Assembly: GCA_963770935.1 (NCBI GenBank)
Contig: CAVYRJ010000008.1
Location: forward strand, 192,001-256,000
Reading direction: 5' to 3'
Source: Candidatus Bathyarchaeota archaeon
Lineage (GTDB): Archaea; Thermoproteota; Bathyarchaeia; Bathyarchaeales; Bathycorpusculaceae
DNA: 64,000 nt
Below are positions 3,111-14,585 of this stretch, in pieces (the first letter of the stretch is position 1; each line of letters starts with the position of its first letter). Position numbers and translations under genes: made by a program. The notes below the pieces were generated by a model. That model made no database searches. It saw only the letters and a program-made list of their open reading frames with translations, and had not been told where the DNA came from.

Positions 3111-5993
3111 TTATTCGATGTAGATTGCAGGTTGATAGGGCAGTGCCATCGCTGCACGGTTCTTGGGGTCAATGCGGTTATTATCGTCCTCGCTGAAAAC
3201 AGATACTTCTGCGTTGAAACGTTGCCTAAAAAAACCTGCTGTAGAAGCCAAAATCGACAGTTCGTCCATTGCTTTGATTTTTTGCATGTTGACTTTGCGT
3301 TCGCCAGAAACCTTTGTTAAAGATTTAATAATTCTTGGAACCATGCCTGCAATATTTTTCATATACGGCTTTAGATCTTTGTCCGCAGCGAAATCCTTCA
3401 TTAGCTCACTGATTTTTGTTTCGCCGGCAATTGTTTTTTCAAGGATTTTTAGGTAAACTTTCCATTTCGATGGTGCCGCAGTGTAGTAGCAGATGCGTTT
3501 TGGCGTTATCTTCGTAGCTTTTATGATGTTTGTTGTGTCGTTGATTATATCGGTGATTAGAGTTTCTTGTTCCTCAGCGGCAATATCAATCTTGCTTATG
3601 TCAAAGACTGGCCATTTTGCAACGCTTATGAATCCTTCTTCTCCAGTTTGGCTCCAAAGCTCCTCACAGAGAAAAGGCGCGAAAGGCGAAAGCATCTTTA
3701 ACCATACTTTCACCGCATCACTCAGAGCTTTGGCCTCTGTGTTGCCTTTCCGTTGAATATACCAGCGCAGATCATTCCAAGTCTCAAACAACGCAACCTG
3801 CAATGCAGTTCGGGTTTTAAGTTCATCTAAGTTTGCTGTGACTTCTTTTATTCGACATTGAAGCTTACTAGTAAGCCACCGTTCCAAGGCTGTGTTTTCT
3901 TGGTTTTTGGCAGAGGCAATTATGCCGCTTGCAAATCCAACTAAAGCTTCAAACTTGGTTTGGAGGTCACTTACGTTTTCAGCGCGCCAATCAGGATCAT
4001 CCATGCCCTCAGCACCCAACAACAAACCACATCTTGTTGCGTCGGCGCCATATTTTTCGACAGCTCCCTTCACGGTTATGAAATTGCCTTTGCTTTTGTG
4101 CATTCCTTGTCCTTCGATCATAAGCATGCCGTTAACGCCGATGGCTTTAGGCCAATGTTCTGGTGGAAAGAGCGCGGCATGATGGAAGATACAGAATGAG
4201 AGATGATTTGGTACGAGTTCTTTAGCGGAATTCCTCAAATCAAATGGGTACCAGTACAGGAATTCAGATCGCATTGCATTGAGCAAGGTAGCACTTAATC
4301 CAGTAGTGATTCCAAGTTCAGTTGCATCGCCTTTACCATAGAAAAGAAAATCGAAAACTTCAGGTGTCAACGCTTCAGCGTTAACGTTATTCTGTTTTAT
4401 GTGTTTGTTTACGGTATAGAATGCCATATAGACCGTTGAGTCACTTAATGTTTCGATTATCCAGCCTTTCCCCCAGGGCAGCGGGGTTCCAAAACCAGTT
4501 GTTCTTGCACAAGCCCACTCGCGAAGCCAATCTATAACTGTGTAGAAATTTTGCTTTGCTGAATTGGGATAAATTGTCATTTGAGCGACGACTTGTTTGG
4601 CTTTCTCCTTCCATTGTGGCTCTGAATAGTTTAGGAACCATTGATCAGAGAGGATTTTTACTAAACACTGCGTCATGCACCGGCAAACGACAGGTTCAGC
4701 TAAATCGTACATGGAATCTGCAGCGCCAAGTTTGCGGAAATCAGTTATCAATATGTCTTTGGCTTCGCGGACAGTTTTTCCTGCATATGGTCCGCAGTTT
4801 GCCTTCAGGATGCCACTATGGAATTCTTTTTTGTACAGTTCTTTTGTGGCTTGTTCACCTTTGGGGTCGTTTTGGTCTTTTATGCCCATTTTCTCGACTA
4901 TTTCAACTGCTGGAAACTCACCAAAGCCCTCGACTTTAATGATCGAAATTGGCTTAATTTGCAGTACTGCAGCTGGATCCATGTCGAACTGTGCAAGGAC
5001 TTCTGGTTTTTGCTGCAGATCGCGCAGTGCTAGCCAATCGTATGGTGCGTGGGCTGGAACGCTGTAAACAACGCCTGTGGCGGTTTTGGGGTCAACAAAC
5101 CAGCCGGGTAAAATTGGAAACTTTAGTTTTGTGATAGGATTCTCAAACCATTTGCCAATGAGTTCTTTGCCTTGGAAGTTGCGCTTTACTTCAACTTTTC
5201 TTTCCTGCTCTTTTAGCTTCTCTGATGCTTCTTGGCTAATTATCCAGTTTTCGCCATTAACGGTTGCTTCCACATAGGTAACGTCAGGGTTAATCCATAT
5301 GTTAGTTACACCATAGATTGTTTCAGGGCGGAAAGTTGCCGCGGGCAGAAACGTTTTTTCATCTAGCTTATACTTTATCAATGTATATTCTTCTGCGGTG
5401 ACGCCTTCGCCGCTTTGACGGTCATGGTCACCTGTGGGGCTCTTATCTTTGGGACACCAAACTACTGGGTGCGTACCACGTGTAACATAACCTTTTTCTT
5501 TAAGGTTCTTGTATTGCCACTCGATGAATTTTTGGTAAGTGGGCATCACTGTTGTGAATTCACGTCGCCAATCCACTGAGAAACCGATGCTTTTAGCGGC
5601 TAAGCGACCTTCGTTAGTGTAGTATTGAGCCATATAGATCGGGTCAACGAATTTCTTGAGTTCTTCTTCAGGCACCCCATCGACCTCTCTTAGGACTTTA
5701 ATATATGCTTCATCACCCCGAGCCACACGTTGGCTTGCTCCAAGCAGCGGTTGACCAGTCCAGTGCCAACCCCAAGGCCAAAGCACATTATAACCCTGCA
5801 TACGCTTAAACCGAGCATAAGCATCCACACGAGAAGCGGAGAAAGCATGCCCAACATGAAGTGGACCATTCATGTACGGATATGGAAAAGTCACCATCTT
5901 TTTCTGCCTGTTCGGATCAGGGTCAGCCTCGAAAACATGGGCGTTTTCCCATTTGGCTTGCCATTTCTGCTCGAATTGCTTGGTTTGGCTCAT
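3111..5993 (-). CDS. leuS: Leucine--tRNA ligase, archaeal type
   Basis: TFPYPYMNGPLHVGH (HIGH), GMHKSKGN (KMSKS-like), ATFRPET editing domain, 960 aa. Confidence 0.97.
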   Translation of the reverse strand: MSQTKQFEQKWQAKWENAHVFEADPDPNRQKKMVTFPYPYMNGPLHVGHAFSASRVDAYARFKRMQGYNVLWPWGWHWTGQPLLGASQRVARGDEAYIKVLREVDGVPEEELKKFVDPIYMAQYYTNEGRLAAKSIGFSVDWRREFTTVMPTYQKFIEWQYKNLKEKGYVTRGTHPVVWCPKDKSPTGDHDRQSGEGVTAEEYTLIKYKLDEKTFLPAATFRPETIYGVTNIWINPDVTYVEATVNGENWIISQEASEKLKEQERKVEVKRNFQGKELIGKWFENPITKLKFPILPGWFVDPKTATGVVYSVPAHAPYDWLALRDLQQKPEVLAQFDMDPAAVLQIKPISIIKVEGFGEFPAVEIVEKMGIKDQNDPKGEQATKELYKKEFHSGILKANCGPYAGKTVREAKDILITDFRKLGAADSMYDLAEPVVCRCMTQCLVKILSDQWFLNYSEPQWKEKAKQVVAQMTIYPNSAKQNFYTVIDWLREWACARTTGFGTPLPWGKGWIIETLSDSTVYMAFYTVNKHIKQNNVNAEALTPEVFDFLFYGKGDATELGITTGLSATLLNAMRSEFLYWYPFDLRNSAKELVPNHLSFCIFHHAALFPPEHWPKAIGVNGMLMIEGQGMHKSKGNFITVKGAVEKYGADATRCGLLLGAEGMDDPDWRAENVSDLQTKFEALVGFASGIIASAKNQENTALERWLTSKLQCRIKEVTANLDELKTRTALQVALFETWNDLRWYIQRKGNTEAKALSDAVKVWLKMLSPFAPFLCEELWSQTGEEGFISVAKWPVFDISKIDIAAEEQETLITDIINDTTNIIKATKITPKRICYYTAAPSKWKVYLKILEKTIAGETKISELMKDFAADKDLKPYMKNIAGMVPRIIKSLTKVSGERKVNMQKIKAMDELSILASTAGFFRQRFNAEVSVFSEDDNNRIDPKNRAAMALPYQPAIYIE

Positions 5994-6100
5994 GAAACCT
6001 TCTGATTAAAGCTTTAGCTATTAAGAGTTTTTCTTGCGTGCATGGTCAAGTGACCTAAAAATACAAATACAAAGACAAACAAAAGGTGCATCGATCACAC

Positions 6101-7099
6101 ATGTCCACCGACGAGGAGTTAATGCAGGAAGTTCAGACCTTTCTAGTTGAGCGCTCAAAAAAGGCCATTTTCTTGGCGAGGGAAGCTATCTTTAAAGAAC
6201 AAATTAAGTACACGCCCCTCCTTGAAGCCCTCACTTATTTTATGCAGGAAGTATGGACAAATGCAGCTCCTCACCCAACTCTTTTGTCCTTAACCTGTGA
6301 AGCAGTCGGGGGAAACCCTGATGCAATAATTGAAATAAGTGCAGCAATGGTGCTGTTGACTGGTGCAGCAGATATCCACGATGACATTATCGACCAATCA
6401 ATAACAAAAGATTCTAAACCTACAGTTTACGGCAAATACGGCAAAGACATTGCAGTCATAGCAGGAGATGTATTGTGGTTCAAAGGCATAATGATGTTAA
6501 ACGAGGCGTGTGAATCGTTCCAAAAAAATAAAAGATATGAAATTCTTGAGATAGCAAAGCAATCCTTCTTTGATATTGGTAGTGCAGAAGCCAACGAAGC
6601 AAATCAAAGAAGAAACCTTGATCTGCAACCTCAGAAATCTCTAGAAATTATTAGAATGAAGGCTTCAGTTGCGGGGGCAGCGGCCAAGATTGGTGCTATT
6701 GTTGGAGGTGGAACCGAGGAAGAAGTTAAAAGCCTAGGCGACTTTGGAGATAACTTGGGATTTCTGATGACTATCCGTGACGAATTTGTAGATGTTTTTG
6801 AGGCAGATGAGTTGAAGAACAGGTTTACTAATGAGTGTTTGCCGCTTCCTATTTTGTACGCTTTCCAAAACATAGTCTTAAAAAGACAAATTTTGGATAT
6901 ACTTAAACAGGCAGACATTAAAGAATCTGATTCAGAAAAAATTGCGGAACTAGTCATTAACTCCCCTCAATTACATAAGCTTACAGGTATCATGAAATCA
7001 TCAATGAAAATAGCTACCGAGAGTTTAACAAATATGAAAAAGAACAAAAATATATTTAATCAATTATTGAAGTCTGCGCTACAAGATTTGCCTTCTTAA
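6101..7099 (+). CDS. Isoprenyl diphosphate synthase-fold (polyprenyl synthetase family) protein A with degenerate motifs; candidate ComQ-like peptide Trp-prenyltransferase
   Basis: First Asp-rich motif IHDDIID and AVIAGD intact; no GKRxR, no RR after DDxxD (QSITKDSKPT), GQxxD replaced by AEANE, second motif RDEFVD. ATG at 6101 preferred over GTG 6086. Confidence 0.85.
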   Translation: MSTDEELMQEVQTFLVERSKKAIFLAREAIFKEQIKYTPLLEALTYFMQEVWTNAAPHPTLLSLTCEAVGGNPDAIIEISAAMVLLTGAADIHDDIIDQSITKDSKPTVYGKYGKDIAVIAGDVLWFKGIMMLNEACESFQKNKRYEILEIAKQSFFDIGSAEANEANQRRNLDLQPQKSLEIIRMKASVAGAAAKIGAIVGGGTEEEVKSLGDFGDNLGFLMTIRDEFVDVFEADELKNRFTNECLPLPILYAFQNIVLKRQILDILKQADIKESDSEKIAELVINSPQLHKLTGIMKSSMKIATESLTNMKKNKNIFNQLLKSALQDLPS

Positions 7100-7100
7100 A

Positions 7101-7119
7101 ATAAATAAAGAAAAAAAAG
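7101..7119 (-). terminator. Oligo(T) archaeal terminator for the minus-strand micro-peptide gene
   Basis: Minus strand reads TTTTTTTTCTTTATTTAT a few nt after the peptide stop at 7128. Confidence 0.5.
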
Positions 7120-7127
7120 TTAAGAAT

Positions 7128-7169
7128 TTACCACCAGTACATTCTTACAGGTCTAATTGGTTTTTTCGT
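7128..7169 (-). CDS. Micro-peptide A, (M)KKPIRPVRMYWW, 13 aa; candidate precursor with ACG at the start position
   Basis: Minus strand: CAGGAGG AAAGGAAT ACG AAA AAA CCA ATT AGA CCT GTA AGA ATG TAC TGG TGG TAA. Strong SD 8 nt before ACG, upstream TATA-like box, downstream T-run; resembles peptide B. Confidence 0.55.
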   Translation of the reverse strand, partial: TKKPIRPVRMYWW

Positions 7170-7176
7170 ATTCCTT

Positions 7177-7222
7177 TCCTCCTGTATTGTTGTTGAACGT
7201 ATAAACTTTAAAAGGTTTGCGG
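7177..7222 (-). promoter_or_regulatory. BRE/TATA-like promoter and SD of micro-peptide A
   Basis: Minus strand CCGCAAACCTTTTAAAG (TATA ~7206-7213), then about 25 nt to ACAGGAGG. Confidence 0.5.
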
Positions 7223-7340
7223 TAACTAGCCTCTATGTCAAGACATTTATCAATATTAGCAATCTTGTTTATTACTACTCAAAGCTTATCTTAACCGAAA
7301 TCTCAAATACTTTCTAACTGAACTCGCACGATAGAATTTA

Positions 7341-8666
7341 GTGTTAATCATGGGTAAAACTGGAAAACTCACAATGGATTTGCGCCTAACTCTAGGAAGT
7401 GCCTTTTTAATCGTAAATGCGCTCGTTTGGTATAGTGTTGCAACTAATATTTTGCCATCTATAATAATGAAAGACTCACAAAGTCTATTGTTATGGAGTT
7501 TTCATTTTGTTGCACTAATTATTTCAATTTTTATCGGTATCCTGTTGACTAAAAAAATTGGCACCCGATTCTTGCTTTTGATATGGACGAGTATTGGAAT
7601 TTTTTCTCCTCTAACTTTGTTTGCTATCGATAGTGAAGGTATTCCGCCCTTAGCTATGGTACTTTTCGGTGTATCTCTTGGGTTGGGTATACCGAGTTGC
7701 ATGGCTTACTTTTCTAGATCTACTCAGGCTAACAATCGGGGAAAATTCGCCGGTTTGATAATGCTATTAATTGGCATATTTAGTGTTTTACTGATTGTAT
7801 TAAGTGCAAATAAAATAGAGCCAACAGCCATTATTTTGATGATCTGGCGAACATTTGGGCTGCTATTTTTTCTTGTCCCAAATATAAAGCAACCTATAAT
7901 ACCTGATAAGCACTCAGTATCATTTTCTTTTGTTCTGAAACAAAGGTCCTTCATCTTATACTTGATTCCATGGCTGATGTTTTCTTTAGTTGGTTATCTA
8001 AGTGTGCCTGTGCAGGAAAGCGTTTTAGCGCAACAAGAAATTAATATTCTCAGGCTTGCCGAAAGTATTATTGGAAGTGTTTTTTCCGTAATTACTGGAT
8101 TGCTGATAGGTGTTGTGGGCAGGAAACGTATTGCAATTATTGCATTTGTTTTGGTTGGGATCGAGTTTGCGATTTTAGGAATGTATCCAGACCAAATGGC
8201 AGGATGGATGATCTATACAGTACTTAACGGGGCAGCATGGGGAACGTTCTATGTTCTGTTTGTAATGTCAATTTGGGGAGATTTGAGCCAAAATACTTCG
8301 ATAGAAAAGTACTATGCCCTTGGAATCATTCCGTTCTTTATATCCAAGTATTTGTCGCTAGTGCTAGGAGAAAATGTAGCTGCTGCAGTTTCTGTAAACA
8401 CTTTATTTTCATTCACTGCGTTTTTCCTTTTTCTAGCTGTTTTGCCCTTGGTTTATGCGCCTGAGACTTTGCCTGAAAAAGTCATGAAGGATAGGGATCT
8501 TAAAAGTTACATCGAGAACGCAAAAAAGAAAGCCCAAAAAGATGCTGATAAAGCAGCTAATAACAAAGAGAAAAAATTGAAAAAAGTGTCCGAGGAGAAA
8601 ACTCAAGATGCCAAACCTGATAAGGCCTATGAAGAAGCAAAAAGACTTGCAGAAAAATACTACTAA
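7341..8666 (+). CDS. MFS-type transporter A with charged C-terminal tail
   Basis: About 12 hydrophobic segments, GRKR loop motif, APETLPEK after the last helix, tail YEEAKRLAEKYY. Confidence 0.85.
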   Translation: MLIMGKTGKLTMDLRLTLGSAFLIVNALVWYSVATNILPSIIMKDSQSLLLWSFHFVALIISIFIGILLTKKIGTRFLLLIWTSIGIFSPLTLFAIDSEGIPPLAMVLFGVSLGLGIPSCMAYFSRSTQANNRGKFAGLIMLLIGIFSVLLIVLSANKIEPTAIILMIWRTFGLLFFLVPNIKQPIIPDKHSVSFSFVLKQRSFILYLIPWLMFSLVGYLSVPVQESVLAQQEINILRLAESIIGSVFSVITGLLIGVVGRKRIAIIAFVLVGIEFAILGMYPDQMAGWMIYTVLNGAAWGTFYVLFVMSIWGDLSQNTSIEKYYALGIIPFFISKYLSLVLGENVAAAVSVNTLFSFTAFFLFLAVLPLVYAPETLPEKVMKDRDLKSYIENAKKKAQKDADKAANNKEKKLKKVSEEKTQDAKPDKAYEEAKRLAEKYY

Positions 8667-8870
8667 AACGTGGATGATGATTTCACGGAGATTTGTTGGG
8701 GCAAAATAGAATTGAACATGTACCTGCGGCTGTTTGGATTTAATCAATAATCTTTCTTCTTAATGATGAATCCCCAGCTAAAGCTAAATAATCAAGTATT
8801 TTTGTTGTATTGCTGTTCTACTGTTGTTTTGTTGGATAACTATCTCAAAACCGAATGTTTTGGTGTGTAC

Positions 8871-8917
8871 TTATATATTACGAGTCACGACTTGTTTCAT
8901 AAGGGTAAGAGGTGAAA
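8871..8917 (+). promoter_or_regulatory. TATA box and SD of micro-peptide B
   Basis: TTATATAT at 8871-8878; GAGGTGA at 8909-8915, 5 nt before ATG 8921. Confidence 0.6.
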
Positions 8918-8920
8918 TAC

Positions 8921-8974
8921 ATGAAACAAAAACAAGCAATCCGAGCTAAACCCATAAATTGGGGTGGATGGTAA
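8921..8974 (+). CDS. Micro-peptide B, MKQKQAIRAKPINWGGW, 17 aa; candidate ComX-like precursor
   Basis: Canonical archaeal SD GAGGTGA, ATG, own TATA box; lies directly upstream of prenyltransferase B; Trp at -4 and -1. Confidence 0.75.
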   Translation: MKQKQAIRAKPINWGGW

Positions 8975-9078
8975 AAAAATCCAGTGCTGAAAAGAAACTT
9001 TCTCACACCAAATTTTGATTTTGAATCTTAATTTTAAAATCTTAACTTACAAATAGTGAAGGTTCTGATTTTACCTGT

Positions 9079-10086
9079 ATGCCAACTAGCTCCCTTACCC
9101 AGAATGCGTTATGCATAATTCAAGGTAAGGGTCATTCTGCGATATCTCAAGCTTGCCAAAAAATATTCCAAAAACAATATGATAGAGGAATAATGCGTGA
9201 AGCATTACACTATTATGCGAAAATGGTTCTTCCAAATGTTCTGCCGATTTTTCCAGCTCTAGGTTACTTATCTAGCAAAGCCGTGGGCATGGTCCCCGAA
9301 AACTACAACTCGGTAGCAAGGGCTATGGTGCTTATAACATCCTCAGGAGATATCCACGATGACATCGTTGACAATTCAAGGAAAAAGTTTGGACGAAAAA
9401 CGGTTTTTGGCAAATTCGGGAAAGATATTGCTATTTTGGCAGGCGATGTATTGCTTATTCAGGGAACAGCAGACCTTCAAAGCGAATGCTACAACCTGTC
9501 AAGCAGGCACAGAAAGGCCATAGTGGATTTGGTTGCTGCCTCGATGTTCGAAATCGTGACAGCTGAAGCACTAGAGATTTCCTTGTGTGATAAAGTTAAT
9601 GCGTCTCCAGAGGAGTATTTTGAGGTCATCAGAATGAAAGGTAGTGTTGGAGAGCTTCATTGCAAAATCGGTGCAATAATCGGTGGCGGAAGTCAAGAAG
9701 CGATCGATGACTTAGGACATTATGGCAGGGTAATCGGGATCTTGTCGACTCTGAAAGAGGAATTTGTTGATATGACAATGTTGGAAGAGTTTAAGCACCG
9801 AATCAAGTACGAATTACCGCCATATCCCATGCTTTGTGCCATGAAGAATAAAGCTCTGAAAAAAAAAATTGTTGGCATCACCGAGGGGCCCAAGTTTTTA
9901 GAGAATGATTTGCAGGCAATTGAGGAAATGGTACTAGGTTCGATAGAAGTAAAAAGGCTCATAGCCGAATTTAGGGACTTAGGCAGAAAAGAATTGACTA
10001 CAAACTTGTTGTTAAAAGAAAATAAAAGAGCAAGTGAGTTGTCGTTTATACTTGAGGCTTTGACAGTTGAATTGTCGCTTGTTTAG
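9079..10086 (+). CDS. Isoprenyl diphosphate synthase-fold protein B (paralogue of A) with degenerate motifs; candidate ComQ-like prenyltransferase
   Basis: IHDDIVD and AILAGD intact; NSRKKFGRKT instead of RRG, AEALE instead of GQxxD, second motif LKEEFVD, no GKRxR. Confidence 0.85.
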   Translation: MPTSSLTQNALCIIQGKGHSAISQACQKIFQKQYDRGIMREALHYYAKMVLPNVLPIFPALGYLSSKAVGMVPENYNSVARAMVLITSSGDIHDDIVDNSRKKFGRKTVFGKFGKDIAILAGDVLLIQGTADLQSECYNLSSRHRKAIVDLVAASMFEIVTAEALEISLCDKVNASPEEYFEVIRMKGSVGELHCKIGAIIGGGSQEAIDDLGHYGRVIGILSTLKEEFVDMTMLEEFKHRIKYELPPYPMLCAMKNKALKKKIVGITEGPKFLENDLQAIEEMVLGSIEVKRLIAEFRDLGRKELTTNLLLKENKRASELSFILEALTVELSLV

Positions 10087-10188
10087 CTATTTATCTTGAA
10101 TATGGATTCAATCACTGATGTATTATTTCTTAATGTTTAATAATACTTACACTTATCGTTATCCTGTGCACCCAAAACGCTAAGAATA

Positions 10189-11536
10189 ATCGGTAAAAAA
10201 ATATCGTCAATCTCAAAAGAAACGTTAGTAAGCACTTTTTTAGTAGCGAACGCTTTTGTTTGGTATCTTTGCGGATTCGGGTATTTGCAAGACATAACAA
10301 GTACGAATTTTAGCGGTAATTCACTACTATTAATGGTTAGCGGCAATTTCGTCAGCTTGGTTTTATCTGCCTTTGCTTCTTCCCTTTTAACAAGCAAATT
10401 CAAGCATAGATTAAATTTTCTCAAATATTGGAGTATTGCAGGTGCATCACTTTCAATCATTTTCGCTATCATAAACCTGCAAGAGCTTACAAATATAATA
10501 GCAATTGCAATCATAATTGGTTCGTACTTCGGTATAGGAATGCCCGTTTGCATGGGCTACTACGCAAATTCAACTAAGCCTCAAAACCGAGCAAAACTAA
10601 GTGGAATCATAATACTTTTTATAGGAATAGGTTATCCAGCTATCTCTATAATTGGAAACAATGCACCGCTCTTTTTAGCCGCCACTTTGGCGGTATGGCG
10701 AATCTCGAGTTTATTTCTTATTCGATATATTAAGCCCGCTGAGCAACAAGAAGAGTCAAAACAGAGGGTTACTTACCGGTCAATAATTACAAACAAGAGT
10801 TTTGTTCTCTATGCTCTCCCATGGCTAATGTTTTCTCTCATAAACGACCTGACAATGCAGTTGAATACTAGCTGACTTTAGTAGCAGTACATTTCCCCAG
10901 GCTTTTGGAAATAACTTTCTGCTTATAGAAATGGTCTTAGCTGGGGCTTCAGCAATTATTTGTGGGCTTTTAGCTGATAGGAAAGGTCGAAAACGATTGG
11001 CATTGATCGGCTTTGTACTTTTAGGCGTTGGGTATGCTTCTTTAGGGATTTTTACCGGCAACTACCTTGCAGCCTGGTTTTATGTATGTGTTGACGGTAT
11101 CGCGTGGGGTGCTTTTTCAATGTTGTTTTTAGTAACTCTCTGGGGGGATATTGCTCAGGGAAAAAGCGCTGAGAAATATTATGTTCTTGGAGTCCTTCCA
11201 TATTTGTTTTCAAACCTAGCTCGCGTTTTAGCTGGAACTTACATATCAGCTAATATGATAGAGGGAACGGCTTTCTCGTTTGCCAGCTTCTTTCTATTCA
11301 TTGCAATACTGCCTATAGCATTTGCTCCAGAGACCTTGTCTGAAAAAATAATAAAGAAACTAGACCTCAATAGCTATGTCAACCAAGCATTGGAGAAAGC
11401 AAAGAAAAAGAATGCAAAAAATGTGGAGCCAGGTCAAAGAGTTGTATCACAGAATGAAATGACAAGCAATGATGAAGCCGATGATACGTCAAAAGAGTAC
11501 GAAGAAGCAAAGAAGTTGGCGGAAAAATACTATTAA
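10189..11536 (+). CDS. MFS-type transporter B (paralogue of A); +1 frameshift at ~10873; no canonical start codon
   Basis: ORFs 10285-10875 and 10931-11536 join; frame is open upstream to IIGKKISSISKETLVSTFLVANAFVWY, matching IMGK...SAFLIVNALVWY of A; tail YEEAKKLAEKYY. Confidence 0.8.
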
Positions 11537-11561
11537 GTCGGACGTTTGTTGATATGGTTTC

Positions 11562-12693
11562 ATGTTCTTTCACGTGATACTTACCAGTGACTGCAATTTG
11601 CAGTGCAAGTACTGTTTTGGCGAGAGCCTTGATGACTTTGACGAAGAATTCGGCGACGATATAGAAGTCGACTACGATTTGCCACGCAACCTCAGCTATG
11701 ATTTAGAGCCTCTGAACAAGTTCTGCCGACAAGACCCTAATTGTGTTTTGACCTTCTATGGTGGAGAACCCCTGCTGCAGATGGATAAACTTAGGCAAAT
11801 TATGAATAAAGTGACCCCTAAACATTATATGATGCAAACAAACGGTTTACTTCTTGACAAACTTGAACCAAAATATGTTAACCGTTTCCACACTATCCTT
11901 GTCTCGATTGATGGGCAAGAAGACCTGACGGATGCTTATCGAGGAGCAGGAACTTACCGGAAAGTCATCGAGAACCTAAAATTAATCAAGAAAAACGGAT
12001 TTAAGGGAGAATTAATTGCTCGCATGACCATAATGGAGCAAACCGACATAGAAAAACAAGTCAAATATCTCTTGAACAACCCGGATTTTTCGTTTACCTC
12101 GATTCATTGGCAACTTAACGCTGGTTTCTGGGGCAATGACTATCAAAGGCGCAACTTTGAGGAGTGGACCAAAACCAGCTACATTCCAGGGGTTGAAAGG
12201 CTGGTGCATTTTTGGGTTGACCAAATCCAAGATAAGGGCACTGTGCTTAAACTATACCCAATTTTGGGCATAGCAAACTCGCTTTTGCATGAAGAGAAAA
12301 AATGCCTGATGCGTTGCGGAGGCGGCTGGATAAACTACGCTATCCAAACTGACGGCTACATTATTCCTTGCCCAACCATGTGGGGGATGAAGGAATACTA
12401 TCTTGGGCATATAAAAGATGCCGACCCTCTAAAACTTGAGACGAATTTTCGTAGACGAGAAACCTTGTGTGGACTGCAAAAATCTGGATATTTGCGGGGG
12501 AAGATGCCTATACACTAATATAACCAAAAGATGGAGCGATGATGCTTACAATAAAGTTTGCAACACGGTGGAACAATTAATCAAAGCAGTAGAATGCGAA
12601 GTCCCACGCATCCGAAGGTTGATCAGTAAGGGAAAAGTTGGGATAGATGACTTTGATTATGTAAAATATAATGGTGCTGAAATCATACCTTAG
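11562..12693 (+). CDS. Radical SAM/SPASM protein, resembling the AF0577 (TIGR04084) putative peptide-modifying family; frameshift at ~12435
   Basis: CNLQCKYC, FYGGEP, CGGG...DGYIIPCP, and in the second frame CVDCKNLDICGGRC...C; ends YNGAEIIP. Confidence 0.88.
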
Positions 12694-12854
12694 AGTTGTT
12701 TGTATACAACATTTTTTTTCTCTTTCCCATTGAATTGTTTATTCGATGTTTTGTCTGATTTCTGCCCGATGGATTTCTTTAGTGTCAATCTGAATGGAAT
12801 TGACGGGCTGGTCAAAATTTATTATGAGTCCTTTGGAATTGGTATTCGAATTCT

Positions 12855-13448
12855 TTATTTTGAAAGCAGGAAAAGTCCGACTTCACCGAAAAGGTTGGGC
12901 AAAACCGAAACCTCCTTGTCCTTAGAGATGAAAACCGCTTTTTCGATACATATCCCACTTTTTTTGCAATATTCTTTGAAGTCAGCGATGCTTAGAAAGT
13001 GTAAGTTAGGAGTATCATACCACTCATAAGGCAGAGATGGGGTAACTGGGACTTTTCCGCGGAAGAAAATCTGGAAGCGATCAGTGATATAGCAAAAATT
13101 TGGGAAACCAACGATTACTTTTTTGCCGACACGCAAGGCCTCTTTTATCGCAAAATCAGGTTTCTTGACTTGTTGTAATGTTTGGTTTAGGATAACGTAG
13201 TCTACGCTTTTGTCAGCGTATTCGGTTAATCCAGTGTCGATGTCTTGCTGGAACACGCTTAAGCCTGCTGCTACGCAGTTGTGGATGGCTTGTTCGCTGA
13301 GTTCCACGCCTTGTGCATGCACTTGCTTGTTGCGGATCAGCAAATTGAGAAGTTCGCCGTCGCCGCATCCCAAATCCAAAACGGATGCTCCGCTGCTAAT
13401 CCAGCTTGAAATGACTTTGTGCTCAATTACATGGGTTTGCTTTGTCAT
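12855..13448 (-). CDS. metW: Methionine biosynthesis protein MetW
   Basis: [29 protein letters not shown]; overlaps metX stop. Confidence 0.93.
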
Positions 13449-14585
13449 GTACGACCGCCATTTTTGTTTCCATTGGATACAGCTGTCAAAAAGCCCCCGA
13501 TAAGTTGCGTTTCCTGCTCTGTTTCCAACAGGAAAGAGTCATGGCCATAAGTGCTGTTTATTTCGCAGTAGCTTGCCTCTACGCCTGCTAGTTTGCATGC
13601 TTTAACGATTTCTTGGCTTTGGTAGGCTGGGTAGAGCCAGTCAGACTTGAAAGCCAGAACGAGAACTTTTGCCTTTAATCCTTTAAAGACATTGCCTAAA
13701 GCATGGCCGTTGAGAACGTTAAAGTTGTCGATGGCTTTAGTGATGTAGAGATAACTGTTGGCATCGAACCGTTTGACAAAGTTGTCTCCTCTGTAGCGAA
13801 GGTACCCTTCGACTTCGAAGTCTGCGCTGAACTTGAAAGGTTCCTTATCAGCTCTGGTTTTTCTGCCAAACTTTTCAGTCATTGAAGTGTCGCTCATATA
13901 AGTAATGTGTCCAATCATTCGGGCAACGGCTAAACCTTTTGAGGGAGGTTTTGAACCGTAATATTCGCCATTTTTCCAGTCAGGATCTGACATCACAGCT
14001 TGTCGCCCAACCTCGTTGAATGCTATTTGCTGAGGGGTATGTTTCAGCGCCGTTGCAATTGGAATTGCTGAACATATCCATTCGGGATATGAAACCATCC
14101 ATTGCAGCACTTGCATTCCACCCATGGAACCGCCGATAACCGCCAATAACTTCTTGATACCCAAGTGATCAATGAGTTGTTTTTGTGCTTCAACCATGTC
14201 GCCGACGCTAACAAGTGGGAAACTTAGACCGTAAGGCTTTCCTGTTTTATGATCAATTGAAGATGGACCTGTCGAGCCCTTGCAGCCTCCGATAACGTTG
14301 CTGCATATTACAAAGTACTTGTCTGTGTCAATGCCTTTGCCTTGACCTATTAGGTTTCCCCACCAGCCATCGGGTCCAGCAGCATGGGCGTCTCCGCTGA
14401 GTGCATGAAGAACAAGAATTGCGTTTGATTTTTGCGCATTCAATTTGCCGTATGTTTCGTAGGCAAGCGTAATTGGACCTAATTTTTCACCCGATTCCAA
14501 CGTTAACTCATCAGGGGGTTGGGCGAAAGTATAAGTTTTGTGTTTGGCTGGTTTTTTCGTTGGTTATTAGCTTGTTTGCCTCCAT
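13445..14585 (-). CDS. metX: Homoserine O-acetyltransferase; frameshift near the 5' end (A-run ~14555)
   Basis: [20 protein letters not shown]; upstream [19 protein letters not shown] connects to ATG 14585 only through a frameshift. Confidence 0.93.

Follow-up and report, generated by a model that had tools for sequence, protein, structure and literature searches.

What is the role of two diverged trans-isoprenyl diphosphate synthase (IDS)-fold genes that each stand beside a minute open reading frame (ORF) and a transporter gene in an archaeal genome? We addressed this question in a stretch of 64,000 nucleotides from Candidatus Bathyarchaeota archaeon (GenBank assembly GCA_963770935.1, contig CAVYRJ010000008.1, positions 192,001 to 256,000), hereafter the window, where a sequence-only reading had proposed two copies of a ComQ/ComX-like system between positions 6101 and 12693. 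The known IDS-derived tryptophan (Trp) prenyltransferases are ComQ, PalQ, the P domain of ChrPC and StheQ, to which the free-Trp enzyme Ord1 can be added, and in the accessible parts of the reports all of them are bacterial (PMC10853753, PMC13290415, 10.64898/2026.08.29.745113). A preprint of August 2026 calls the Chloroflexi case, in its accessible text, the first ComQ-like system beyond Firmicutes (10.64898/2026.08.29.745113). The literature searched yielded no archaeal IDS-derived peptide Trp prenyltransferase; supplements and network node lists, which possibly hold archaeal members, lay outside that coverage. For the window and its relatives, we propose a peptide prenyltransferase descended from a trans-IDS that acts on a leaderless micro-precursor whose product would be exported by a major facilitator superfamily (MFS) protein, a proposal whose chances we regard as evenly balanced. 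The parts of the two modules are as follows.

6101–7099, plus strand: enzyme A gene, 332 amino acids, a diverged protein of trans-IDS fold (PF00348, 87.6 bits)
7111–7118, minus strand: run of eight T past the stop of peptide A, a putative oligo-T terminator
7128–7169, minus strand: peptide A gene, 13 codons plus stop, first codon ACG (7167–7169), from the ORF reading
7178–7182, minus strand: Shine–Dalgarno (SD)-like GGAGG of peptide A, 8 nt 5′ of the ACG
7206–7215, minus strand: TATA-like box CCTTTTAAAG of peptide A, 37 nt upstream, a putative promoter element
7341–8666, plus strand: MFS A gene, an intact major-facilitator transporter, divergent from peptide A (PF07690)
8909–8915, plus strand: SD-like GAGGTGA, 5′ of peptide B
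8921–8974, plus strand: peptide B gene, ATG start, 17 codons plus stop, from the ORF reading
9079–10086, plus strand: enzyme B gene, second member of the family of enzyme A (PF00348, 70.8 bits)
10144–11536, plus strand: MFS B, a relative of MFS A, either a pseudogene or a gene with an assembly indel

All six parts of the two modules were thus located in the window, together with the TATA-like box and SD-like element proposed for peptide A and the SD-like element proposed for peptide B; the Met start given to peptide A was not found, the codon there being ACG and not ATG. Peptide A converges with enzyme A, leaving 28 bp between the two stops, and the CTTTTAA core of its TATA-like box is kept in 9 of 9 orthologous loci. 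Oligo-T runs serve as a termination signal in archaea. In the second module, enzyme B starts 104 bp 3′ of peptide B on the same strand, and orthologues of peptide B occupy the same position in loci L043 and L045. The two enzymes share 37.7% identity by tblastn (34% in the alignment) and belong to different clades of the family tree. MFS A matched PF07690 with an E value of 2e-07, below the Pfam cut-off, and its relative in locus L101 scored 43.6 bits, above the cut-off. The proposed gene for MFS B at 10189–11536 proved to be a relative of MFS A as expected, and not a clean gene: its frame is open from 10144 and contains no ATG, GTG or TTG before 10285, and it shifts near 10865–10886.

We then asked how consistently the three parts occur together. 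The sample comprised 111 loci with 113 non-redundant homologous enzyme genes, 107 of which had 200 bp of sequence on both sides. In an initial look at 1.5-kb flanks, most homologues had beside them short frames that were basic at the front and rich in Trp at the end. These were counted by a rule that did not demand Trp: 9–30 codons, a start of ATG, GTG, TTG, ACG or ATA, a position within 200 bp of an enzyme end, an SD-like 4-mer upstream and a net charge of at least +3. A stricter earlier rule (at least 30% Lys plus Arg and a narrow SD window) had matched at 55 of 106 enzyme genes, and the looser one was adopted because the strict one missed peptides visible by eye. Micro-ORFs fitting the rule were found 3′ of the enzyme on the opposite strand at 88 of 107 genes, against 10 of 107 on the same strand as a control; 5′ of the enzyme, 33 genes had a same-strand micro-ORF and 17 an opposite-strand one. 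Canonical IDS genes from the same genomes had a downstream opposite-strand micro-ORF at 2 of 21, both unlike the peptides, and none of the micro-ORFs at these 21 genes carried Trp in its last four residues.

The distance from enzyme stop to peptide stop had a median of 14 bp over 87 pairs, some peptide genes overlapping the stop of the enzyme, and an MFS relative lay within 1.5 kb of 102 of the 113 enzyme genes. When all ORFs of at least 110 residues in flanks of 3–6 kb were clustered for the 106 loci in which the enzyme cluster was found, MFS was present in 99 of them. The usual gene order was PadR or leucyl-tRNA synthetase (LeuRS), enzyme, convergent peptide and MFS, followed by radical S-adenosylmethionine (SAM) or ParA/MinD, with the peptide and MFS genes sharing a divergent promoter region. 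The type of peptide follows the enzyme clade on the tree, a sign of co-inheritance. As the sequence-only reading had anticipated for homologous loci, basic micro-ORFs, mostly with a near-terminal Trp, stand beside enzyme and MFS across an archaeal class. These results establish a linkage of enzyme and micro-ORF far beyond chance and a class-wide micro-gene family across Bathyarchaeia that is absent from annotation.

The family is patchy among relatives of the window's genome. At E≤1e-40, relatives of enzyme A turned up in 18 of the 24 further genomes that represent the genus, and the order's other families had them in 6 of 16 genomes. A pattern scan of species-representative genomes confirmed 232 loci, and of the 80 retained nearly all were labelled Candidatus Bathyarchaeota or Bathyarchaeia; the exceptions were three Thermoproteota-labelled loci and four that carry the labels Baldrarchaeota, Nanoarchaeia, Caldiserica and Anaerolineales, which may reflect binning errors. 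A profile search of 1.84 billion representatives returned 516 clusters at E≤1e-30, possibly including some canonical synthases. The ESM Atlas labels the family only as 'polyprenyl synthetase', in Bathyarchaeota clusters.

The positions of the micro-ORFs bear directly on a different explanation, which we consider quite improbable, namely that they encode regulatory leader or arrest peptides, sensitive to Trp codons or to a ligand, that control the enzyme and MFS genes. Upstream copies such as peptide B would then be classic leaders, and convergent copies such as peptide A would act by antisense read-through that reaches the enzyme gene. Peptide B and its relatives do lie about 100 bp 5′ of the enzyme on the same strand, the convergent copies almost touch its stop or overlap it, and the near-terminal Trp codons resemble the trp and tna leaders, which carry Trp codons near their end. 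Against this, the class-wide position is the convergent one, with nothing downstream to control, and the T run directly past peptide A makes read-through unexpected; about 15% of the peptides, moreover, have no Trp codon in the last four positions. Attenuator or terminator structures near peptides A and B were sought as well and rejected: the spacer past peptide B (8965–9085, plus strand) and the region past peptide A (7060–7175, minus strand) folded no better than shuffled sequences, with z-scores of −0.57 and +1.45. A repeat search of the two intergenic regions gave short AT-rich pairs only.

We next examined the peptides themselves. In the two favoured positions, 77 of 137 micro-ORFs (56%) had Trp within the last four residues, compared with 268 of 3808 (7%) found genome-wide by the same rule. 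A picked set of 91 distinct peptides, in which the picking favoured Trp, was 12–22 residues long (median 15), with a net charge of +3 to +8 and a Lys plus Arg content of 35.6%, and 63 of the 91 shared a Pro-x-Arg core. Among the 77 picked peptides with Trp, the last Trp was terminal in 28 and penultimate in 43, so that one to three residues follow it in 49; the residue before Trp was most often Gly (23 of 77), and many peptides end in Gly-Trp or Gly-Gly-Trp. Some 5-mer of GGAGGTGA stands upstream in 32 of the 93 peptide genes picked, compared with 16% of the micro-ORFs that the same rule finds across the genome. What is conserved in these peptides is a pattern rather than a sequence.

The 137 rule matches start with ATG in 73 cases, TTG in 20, ATA in 17, ACG in 16 and GTG in 11. 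In the clade of peptide A, nine loci with the same upstream sequence and position have ATG in three and ACG in six, the ACG occupying the ATG site of the orthologues in the window (7167–7169, minus strand) and in loci L024, L025, L026, L059 and L060. ATA stands in for ATG in another clade (L037 and L038). The ACG and ATA copies may be translated by near-cognate initiation behind a strong SD, or else may be translated poorly. Between the TATA-like box and the SD we also observed a conserved element, GTT(C/G)(A/T)ACA followed after 2–4 bases by ATACA, for example at window positions 7185–7200 on the minus strand. In loci L039 and L032, a second copy of the element is directed towards the MFS gene, so that the two copies form an inverted pair with a common TATA region between them. 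The PadR-type regulator that recurs near the cassette is a candidate binder of this element upstream of the peptide genes.

Whether the micro-ORFs are genes at all was evaluated by comparing codons between orthologues. The ORF, the SD-like element and the stop recur across the class. In 18 pairs with enzyme identity of 65–99.5%, leaving out 31 pairs of unequal length, synonymous changes made up 0.35 of the differing codons in the annotated frame and 0.09–0.24 in the other five frames; at enzyme identity of 55–65%, the values were 0.28 and 0.04–0.26. On the strength of this frame control we take the peptide micro-genes to be coding.

For the enzymes, comparison with known families pointed to a departure from chain elongation. 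The best NCBIfam equivalog match reached 104 bits against a cut-off of 468 (IdsA), all of the 16 and 15 models listed for the two enzymes were far under their cut-offs, and the family as a whole scored 70–105 bits against equivalog cut-offs of 275–600. The genome holds a separate canonical synthase (214 bits, contig C14), and enzymes A and B are therefore extra copies. In the alignment of 31 family sequences, all 31 carry the first motif, DxxDDxxD, unchanged, with D94, D95 and D98 included, and a Lys and a Thr past this motif are invariant as well; at least 90% retain the Lys that belongs to the canonical K-T motif, and the last Asp of the second motif is nearly invariant. In comparison with the genome's own geranylgeranyl diphosphate (GGPP) synthase, the family has no counterpart of GGKRWRP (the GGKRxRP motif), retains, of the Arg-Arg-Gly that follows the first motif, the first Arg alone, as an invariant Lys, has lost the Phe-Gln before the second motif and has a six-residue deletion in place of the Gly-Lys loop. 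In canonical synthases, the residues lost here hold isopentenyl diphosphate (IPP). The second motif is mostly DExxD, EExxD or EDxxD, its first position being Asp, Glu, Ala or Ser, and a basic residue usually sits directly before it. The AlphaFold model of enzyme A had a predicted local distance difference test score (pLDDT) of 93. Judged by these motifs, the donor site and its lysine are preserved in the enzymes, and the residues of the IPP site are gone.

From what was observed here, namely the genes with their conserved linkage, the lost motifs and the fold, we infer the following pathway. The micro-gene would form its own tiny transcription unit, with a TATA-like box, an SD, 12–22 codons and an oligo-T run, and would yield a leaderless peptide that is rich in Lys/Arg at its front, has Pro-(Ile/Val/Leu/Met)-Arg as its core and closes with a short hydrophobic stretch, in which Trp is usually last or second to last. 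The enzyme, a descendant of a trans-IDS, would bind an allylic prenyl diphosphate at its intact first motif and, since the basic residues that hold IPP are gone, would no longer elongate chains. It would instead place the prenyl group on the peptide, where the likeliest acceptor is the indole of the Trp near the end; the characterised bacterial enzymes of the derived type all act in this way. The resulting cationic lipopeptide would be exported by the MFS protein. The product may be a membrane-active or antagonistic peptide, or it may be a signal; both roles are possible.

Several results weigh against this proposal, some concerning the enzyme and others the peptide. According to the accessible text of two reports, the ComQ family is marked by an intact first motif, an Asn-Asp pseudo-second motif (NDxxx) and a Gln one turn upstream of it, Q212 of StheQ (10.64898/2026.08.29.745113, PMC13290415). 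None of the 31 aligned sequences had Asn as the first residue of the second motif, and the Gln that would stand a helical turn ahead of it was likewise absent, with Thr, Ser, Ile, Gly or another variable residue in its place. A minority even keep a DDxxD second motif (for example L027, L035, L039, L047 and L010), and the nearest solved structures were ordinary GGPP synthases (1wy0, 144 bits, template modelling score (TM) 0.82). The indole prenyltransferase Ord1 (PDB 9V4G-J) reached about 100 bits with the family profile and rank 4 in the fold search, with a TM of 0.72 and 23% identity, and was thus no closer than the synthases; ordinary synthases and indole prenyltransferases cannot be told apart by the fold search. 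The label ComQ/ComX-like thus holds for the intact first motif and the loss of IPP-site residues and fails for the second-motif signature; because the latter and the upstream Gln are lacking, we do not file the family under ComQ. It looks like a separate derivation from IDS that follows the same logic.

The same observations would suit an explanation in which the enzymes are ordinary, diverged chain-elongating synthases and the short frames are non-functional, a Lys-rich by-product of the T-rich terminator of the enzyme gene. AAA Lys codons are T runs on the other strand, about where an enzyme terminator is expected; PF00348 is matched above its cut-off, and 'polyprenyl synthetase' is the sole name that public resources give to the family. 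We nevertheless judge this explanation very unlikely, as the IPP-site residues are lost family-wide, the scores fall far below the equivalog cut-offs and such ORFs are missing at the 21 canonical IDS genes apart from the two matches unlike the peptides. A terminator would also leave unexplained the SD, the start and stop, the Pro-x-Arg core, the Trp end, the higher synonymous share in the annotated frame and the upstream copies.

On the side of the peptide, peptide A and 5 of its 8 orthologues begin with ACG, a codon that is not known to work efficiently as a start in archaea. The peptides also evolve fast: at enzyme identity of 50–97%, we counted 182 synonymous and 587 non-synonymous codons, a ratio that by itself does not show constraint, so that the frame control is the result relied on; pairs chosen by peptide identity, a biased set, gave 104 synonymous and 121 non-synonymous. 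No picked peptide accompanied 21 of the 111 enzymes on the tree, several of which come first in a pair of tandem enzymes (L027, L132). No kinase was present among the ten scanned representatives of the 16 most recurrent clusters in the 3–6 kb flanks, and as neither a histidine kinase nor a response regulator recurs there, a quorum-sensing role has no basis here. Finally, about 13 of about 85 convergent peptides judged convincing by eye (about 15%), the 13 likewise judged by eye, lack Trp in the last four residues and have tails containing Tyr or Phe or of Leu-Pro type, some without any aromatic residue. They lie in one enzyme clade of 24 rows (Shimodaira–Hasegawa-like approximate likelihood ratio test (SH-aLRT) 97, quick tree), which includes the enzyme–peptide pairs of L106 and L039 and within which Trp-ended peptides also occur. 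Since such Trp-less peptides exist in one enzyme clade, a universal role for Trp as acceptor is not supported.

Peptides of this kind, in a cassette that is otherwise kept, would fit an explanation in which the peptide is real and is not the substrate. The enzyme would then prenylate a small molecule, free Trp or indole or another compound, and the MFS protein would export the product; the peptide would be a partner or regulator of the transporter or enzyme, or an unmodified cationic membrane-active peptide. That Ord1, a solved relative of the same fold, uses free Trp, and that peptide and MFS genes share a divergent promoter region, also favour this possibility. It offers no ready explanation, however, for the enrichment of C-terminal Trp or for the 14-bp median spacing, and with more than a third of their residues Lys or Arg the peptides are too hydrophilic for membrane subunits. 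In addition, the characterised peptide-linked enzymes of the IDS-derived type all adjoin the gene of their substrate, as far as the accessible parts of the reports describe them (PMC13290415, PMC10853753, 10.64898/2026.08.29.745113). Overall, we consider a non-substrate role of the peptide unlikely, though worth serious attention.

Returning to the peptide as substrate, a more specific form of the proposal can be stated tentatively, and we consider it less likely than not: the cassettes would produce fast-diversifying leaderless cationic peptides of Bathyarchaeia, lipidated with an isoprenoid by an independently evolved IDS-derived transferase and exported by a dedicated MFS protein. The isoprenoid would plausibly be long, for example geranylgeranyl, because small residues precede the first motif.

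The chromosomal setting was examined in the 106 loci described above. The recurrent neighbours were radical SAM (54 loci), a PadR-type regulator (43), LeuRS (32), an amidohydrolase (25), ParA/MinD (18) and a trypsin-like protease (10); the 16 most recurrent clusters also include ABC, ERCC4, DUF998, one without a Pfam match and four that were unscanned. In the window, the radical SAM/SPASM gene (TIGR04084) occupies 11562–12693 and is split by a frame change near 12430–12460. Beyond it, at 12855–14500 on the minus strand, lie what we take, from their translations, to be MetW-like and homoserine O-acetyltransferase-like ORFs. LeuRS is also split in several sister assemblies (loci L024, L025 and L033), and for this reason the frame breaks in MFS B and in the radical SAM gene may be assembly indels, or they may be real decay.

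The radical SAM gene was considered as a further part of the cassette and rejected. TIGR04084 exceeded its cut-off in 33 of 41 genomes, and the gene is near-universal and single-copy in the order. It is present in nine genomes without a family-level enzyme match (G005, G018, G027, G028, G029, G033, G034, G037 and G038), and in G025, G026, G031 and G040 it is either on a different contig from the enzyme or separated from it by about 200 kb. Within the genus (window 3111–13448 compared with L024–L050), LeuRS and the radical SAM gene show 74–87% identity, against 30–58% for the enzyme and MFS between them. Being near-universal, better conserved and sometimes distant, the radical SAM gene is adjacent by synteny and not by function; the interval to 12693 is accordingly not one system as first proposed, since its last part is a housekeeping-like gene.

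The cassette is a hypervariable slot between conserved genes. Within the genus, the enzymes and MFS proteins in this slot fall in several distant clades of the family tree, and two cassettes share the slot in the window and in G012. Different cassette types in the same slot across species of one genus are as expected for antagonism or kin recognition.

Other features of the cassettes vary by clade. A trypsin-like protease gene (PF00089, E 7.7e-11) adjoins the enzyme in 10 loci (L031, L033, L042, L043, L045, L050, L085, L088, L114 and L122), in clades with an upstream or displaced peptide; in the upstream arrangement, protease, peptide, enzyme and MFS lie on one strand. Such a protease, if it cuts behind Lys or Arg, could shorten the peptide at its basic front. 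Tandem family enzymes precede a single convergent peptide and MFS in L027, L084, L089, L092 and L132. In L027 and L132, the upstream enzyme belongs to a deep peptide-less group (16 rows, SH-aLRT 92) and carries a C-terminal extension. The tandem enzymes could form a heterodimer or carry out two successive modifications. The MFS proteins share a cytoplasmic tail that starts Y-A-P-E-T-L-P-E-K (for example window 8430–8666 and 11300–11536) and in the genus forms a long charged extension ending in Lys-Tyr-Tyr; a Tyr-Tyr end was found in 33 of 82 full-length MFS relatives.

If the proposal is true, Archaea would have here their first system for prenylated ribosomal peptides, the characterised cases so far being bacterial only. 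Bathyarchaeia are a widespread uncultured class with no pure cultures, and their secreted molecules are essentially unknown. The key gene is missed by gene callers, at 12–22 codons and with some starts being ACG, ATA or TTG. About 90 natural enzyme–peptide pairs with very short leaderless substrates would suit biocatalysis of peptide lipidation, and the question can be tested cheaply with synthetic 13–17-mers and one soluble enzyme. Should the enzyme leave the peptide untouched, the conserved micro-gene would still need explaining.

Among known systems, the canonical archaeal GGPP synthases (1wy0 and the genome's own) are the best match in sequence and fold and share the first motif and the K-T Lys. 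They keep GGKRxRP, the second Arg of Arg-Arg-Gly, Phe-Gln and the Gly-Lys loop, all lost from the present family, which is patchy and linked to peptide and MFS genes. Ord1 is alike in its fold, its descent from IDS and its prenylation of indole. It differs in keeping a conserved polar residue before the second motif, which is absent here, and in acting on free Trp, as stated in the accessible parts of two reports (PMC13290415; 10.64898/2026.08.29.745113). The minimal microcin C operon mccABC resembles the cassette in its tiny leaderless precursor (7–13 codons), C-terminal-modifying enzyme and MFS exporter; as described in the accessible text, MccB is an adenylating enzyme unrelated to PF00348, and the operon is bacterial with co-directional genes (PMC4010828).

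The closest parallels are ComQ/ComX of Bacillus and StheQ/StheX of Sphaerobacter. In both, as here, an enzyme of trans-IDS fold with an intact first motif and no IPP role adjoins a small gene for a peptide in which Trp lies one to a few residues short of the C-terminus, and the cassette is strongly polymorphic between close relatives. The present system is archaeal and, unlike ComQ and StheQ, lacks the Asn-Asp pseudo-second motif and the upstream Gln. Compared with ComQXPA, no kinase or regulator of ComP/ComA type recurs, MFS is part of the unit and about 15% of the peptides are Trp-less. Precursors of the ComQXPA type, about 55–70 residues long, have a leader that is cleaved off; the ComX precursor has about 55 residues. 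That of StheX has 69 in the accessible text of the preprint (10.64898/2026.08.29.745113), whereas those found here have 12–22 and are leaderless. PalQ/PalX of Paenibacillus alvei likewise pairs a distant enzyme of the IDS superfamily with a prenylated C-terminal Trp, and Gly-Trp ends are common here; PalX, according to the accessible text, has a nitrile-hydratase-type leader domain and its cluster a histidine kinase, neither of which is found in our cassettes (PMC10853753). PalQ prefers a terminal Trp, is helped by a preceding Gly and loses its activity when the peptide is extended past Trp (PMC13290415, accessible part), whereas the last Trp is terminal in only 28 of the 77 picked Trp peptides here. 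StheQ modifies a penultimate Trp (10.64898/2026.08.29.745113, accessible part). Taken together, the preference of PalQ for terminal Trp and Gly and the penultimate Trp of StheQ match the commonest peptide ends in Bathyarchaeia.

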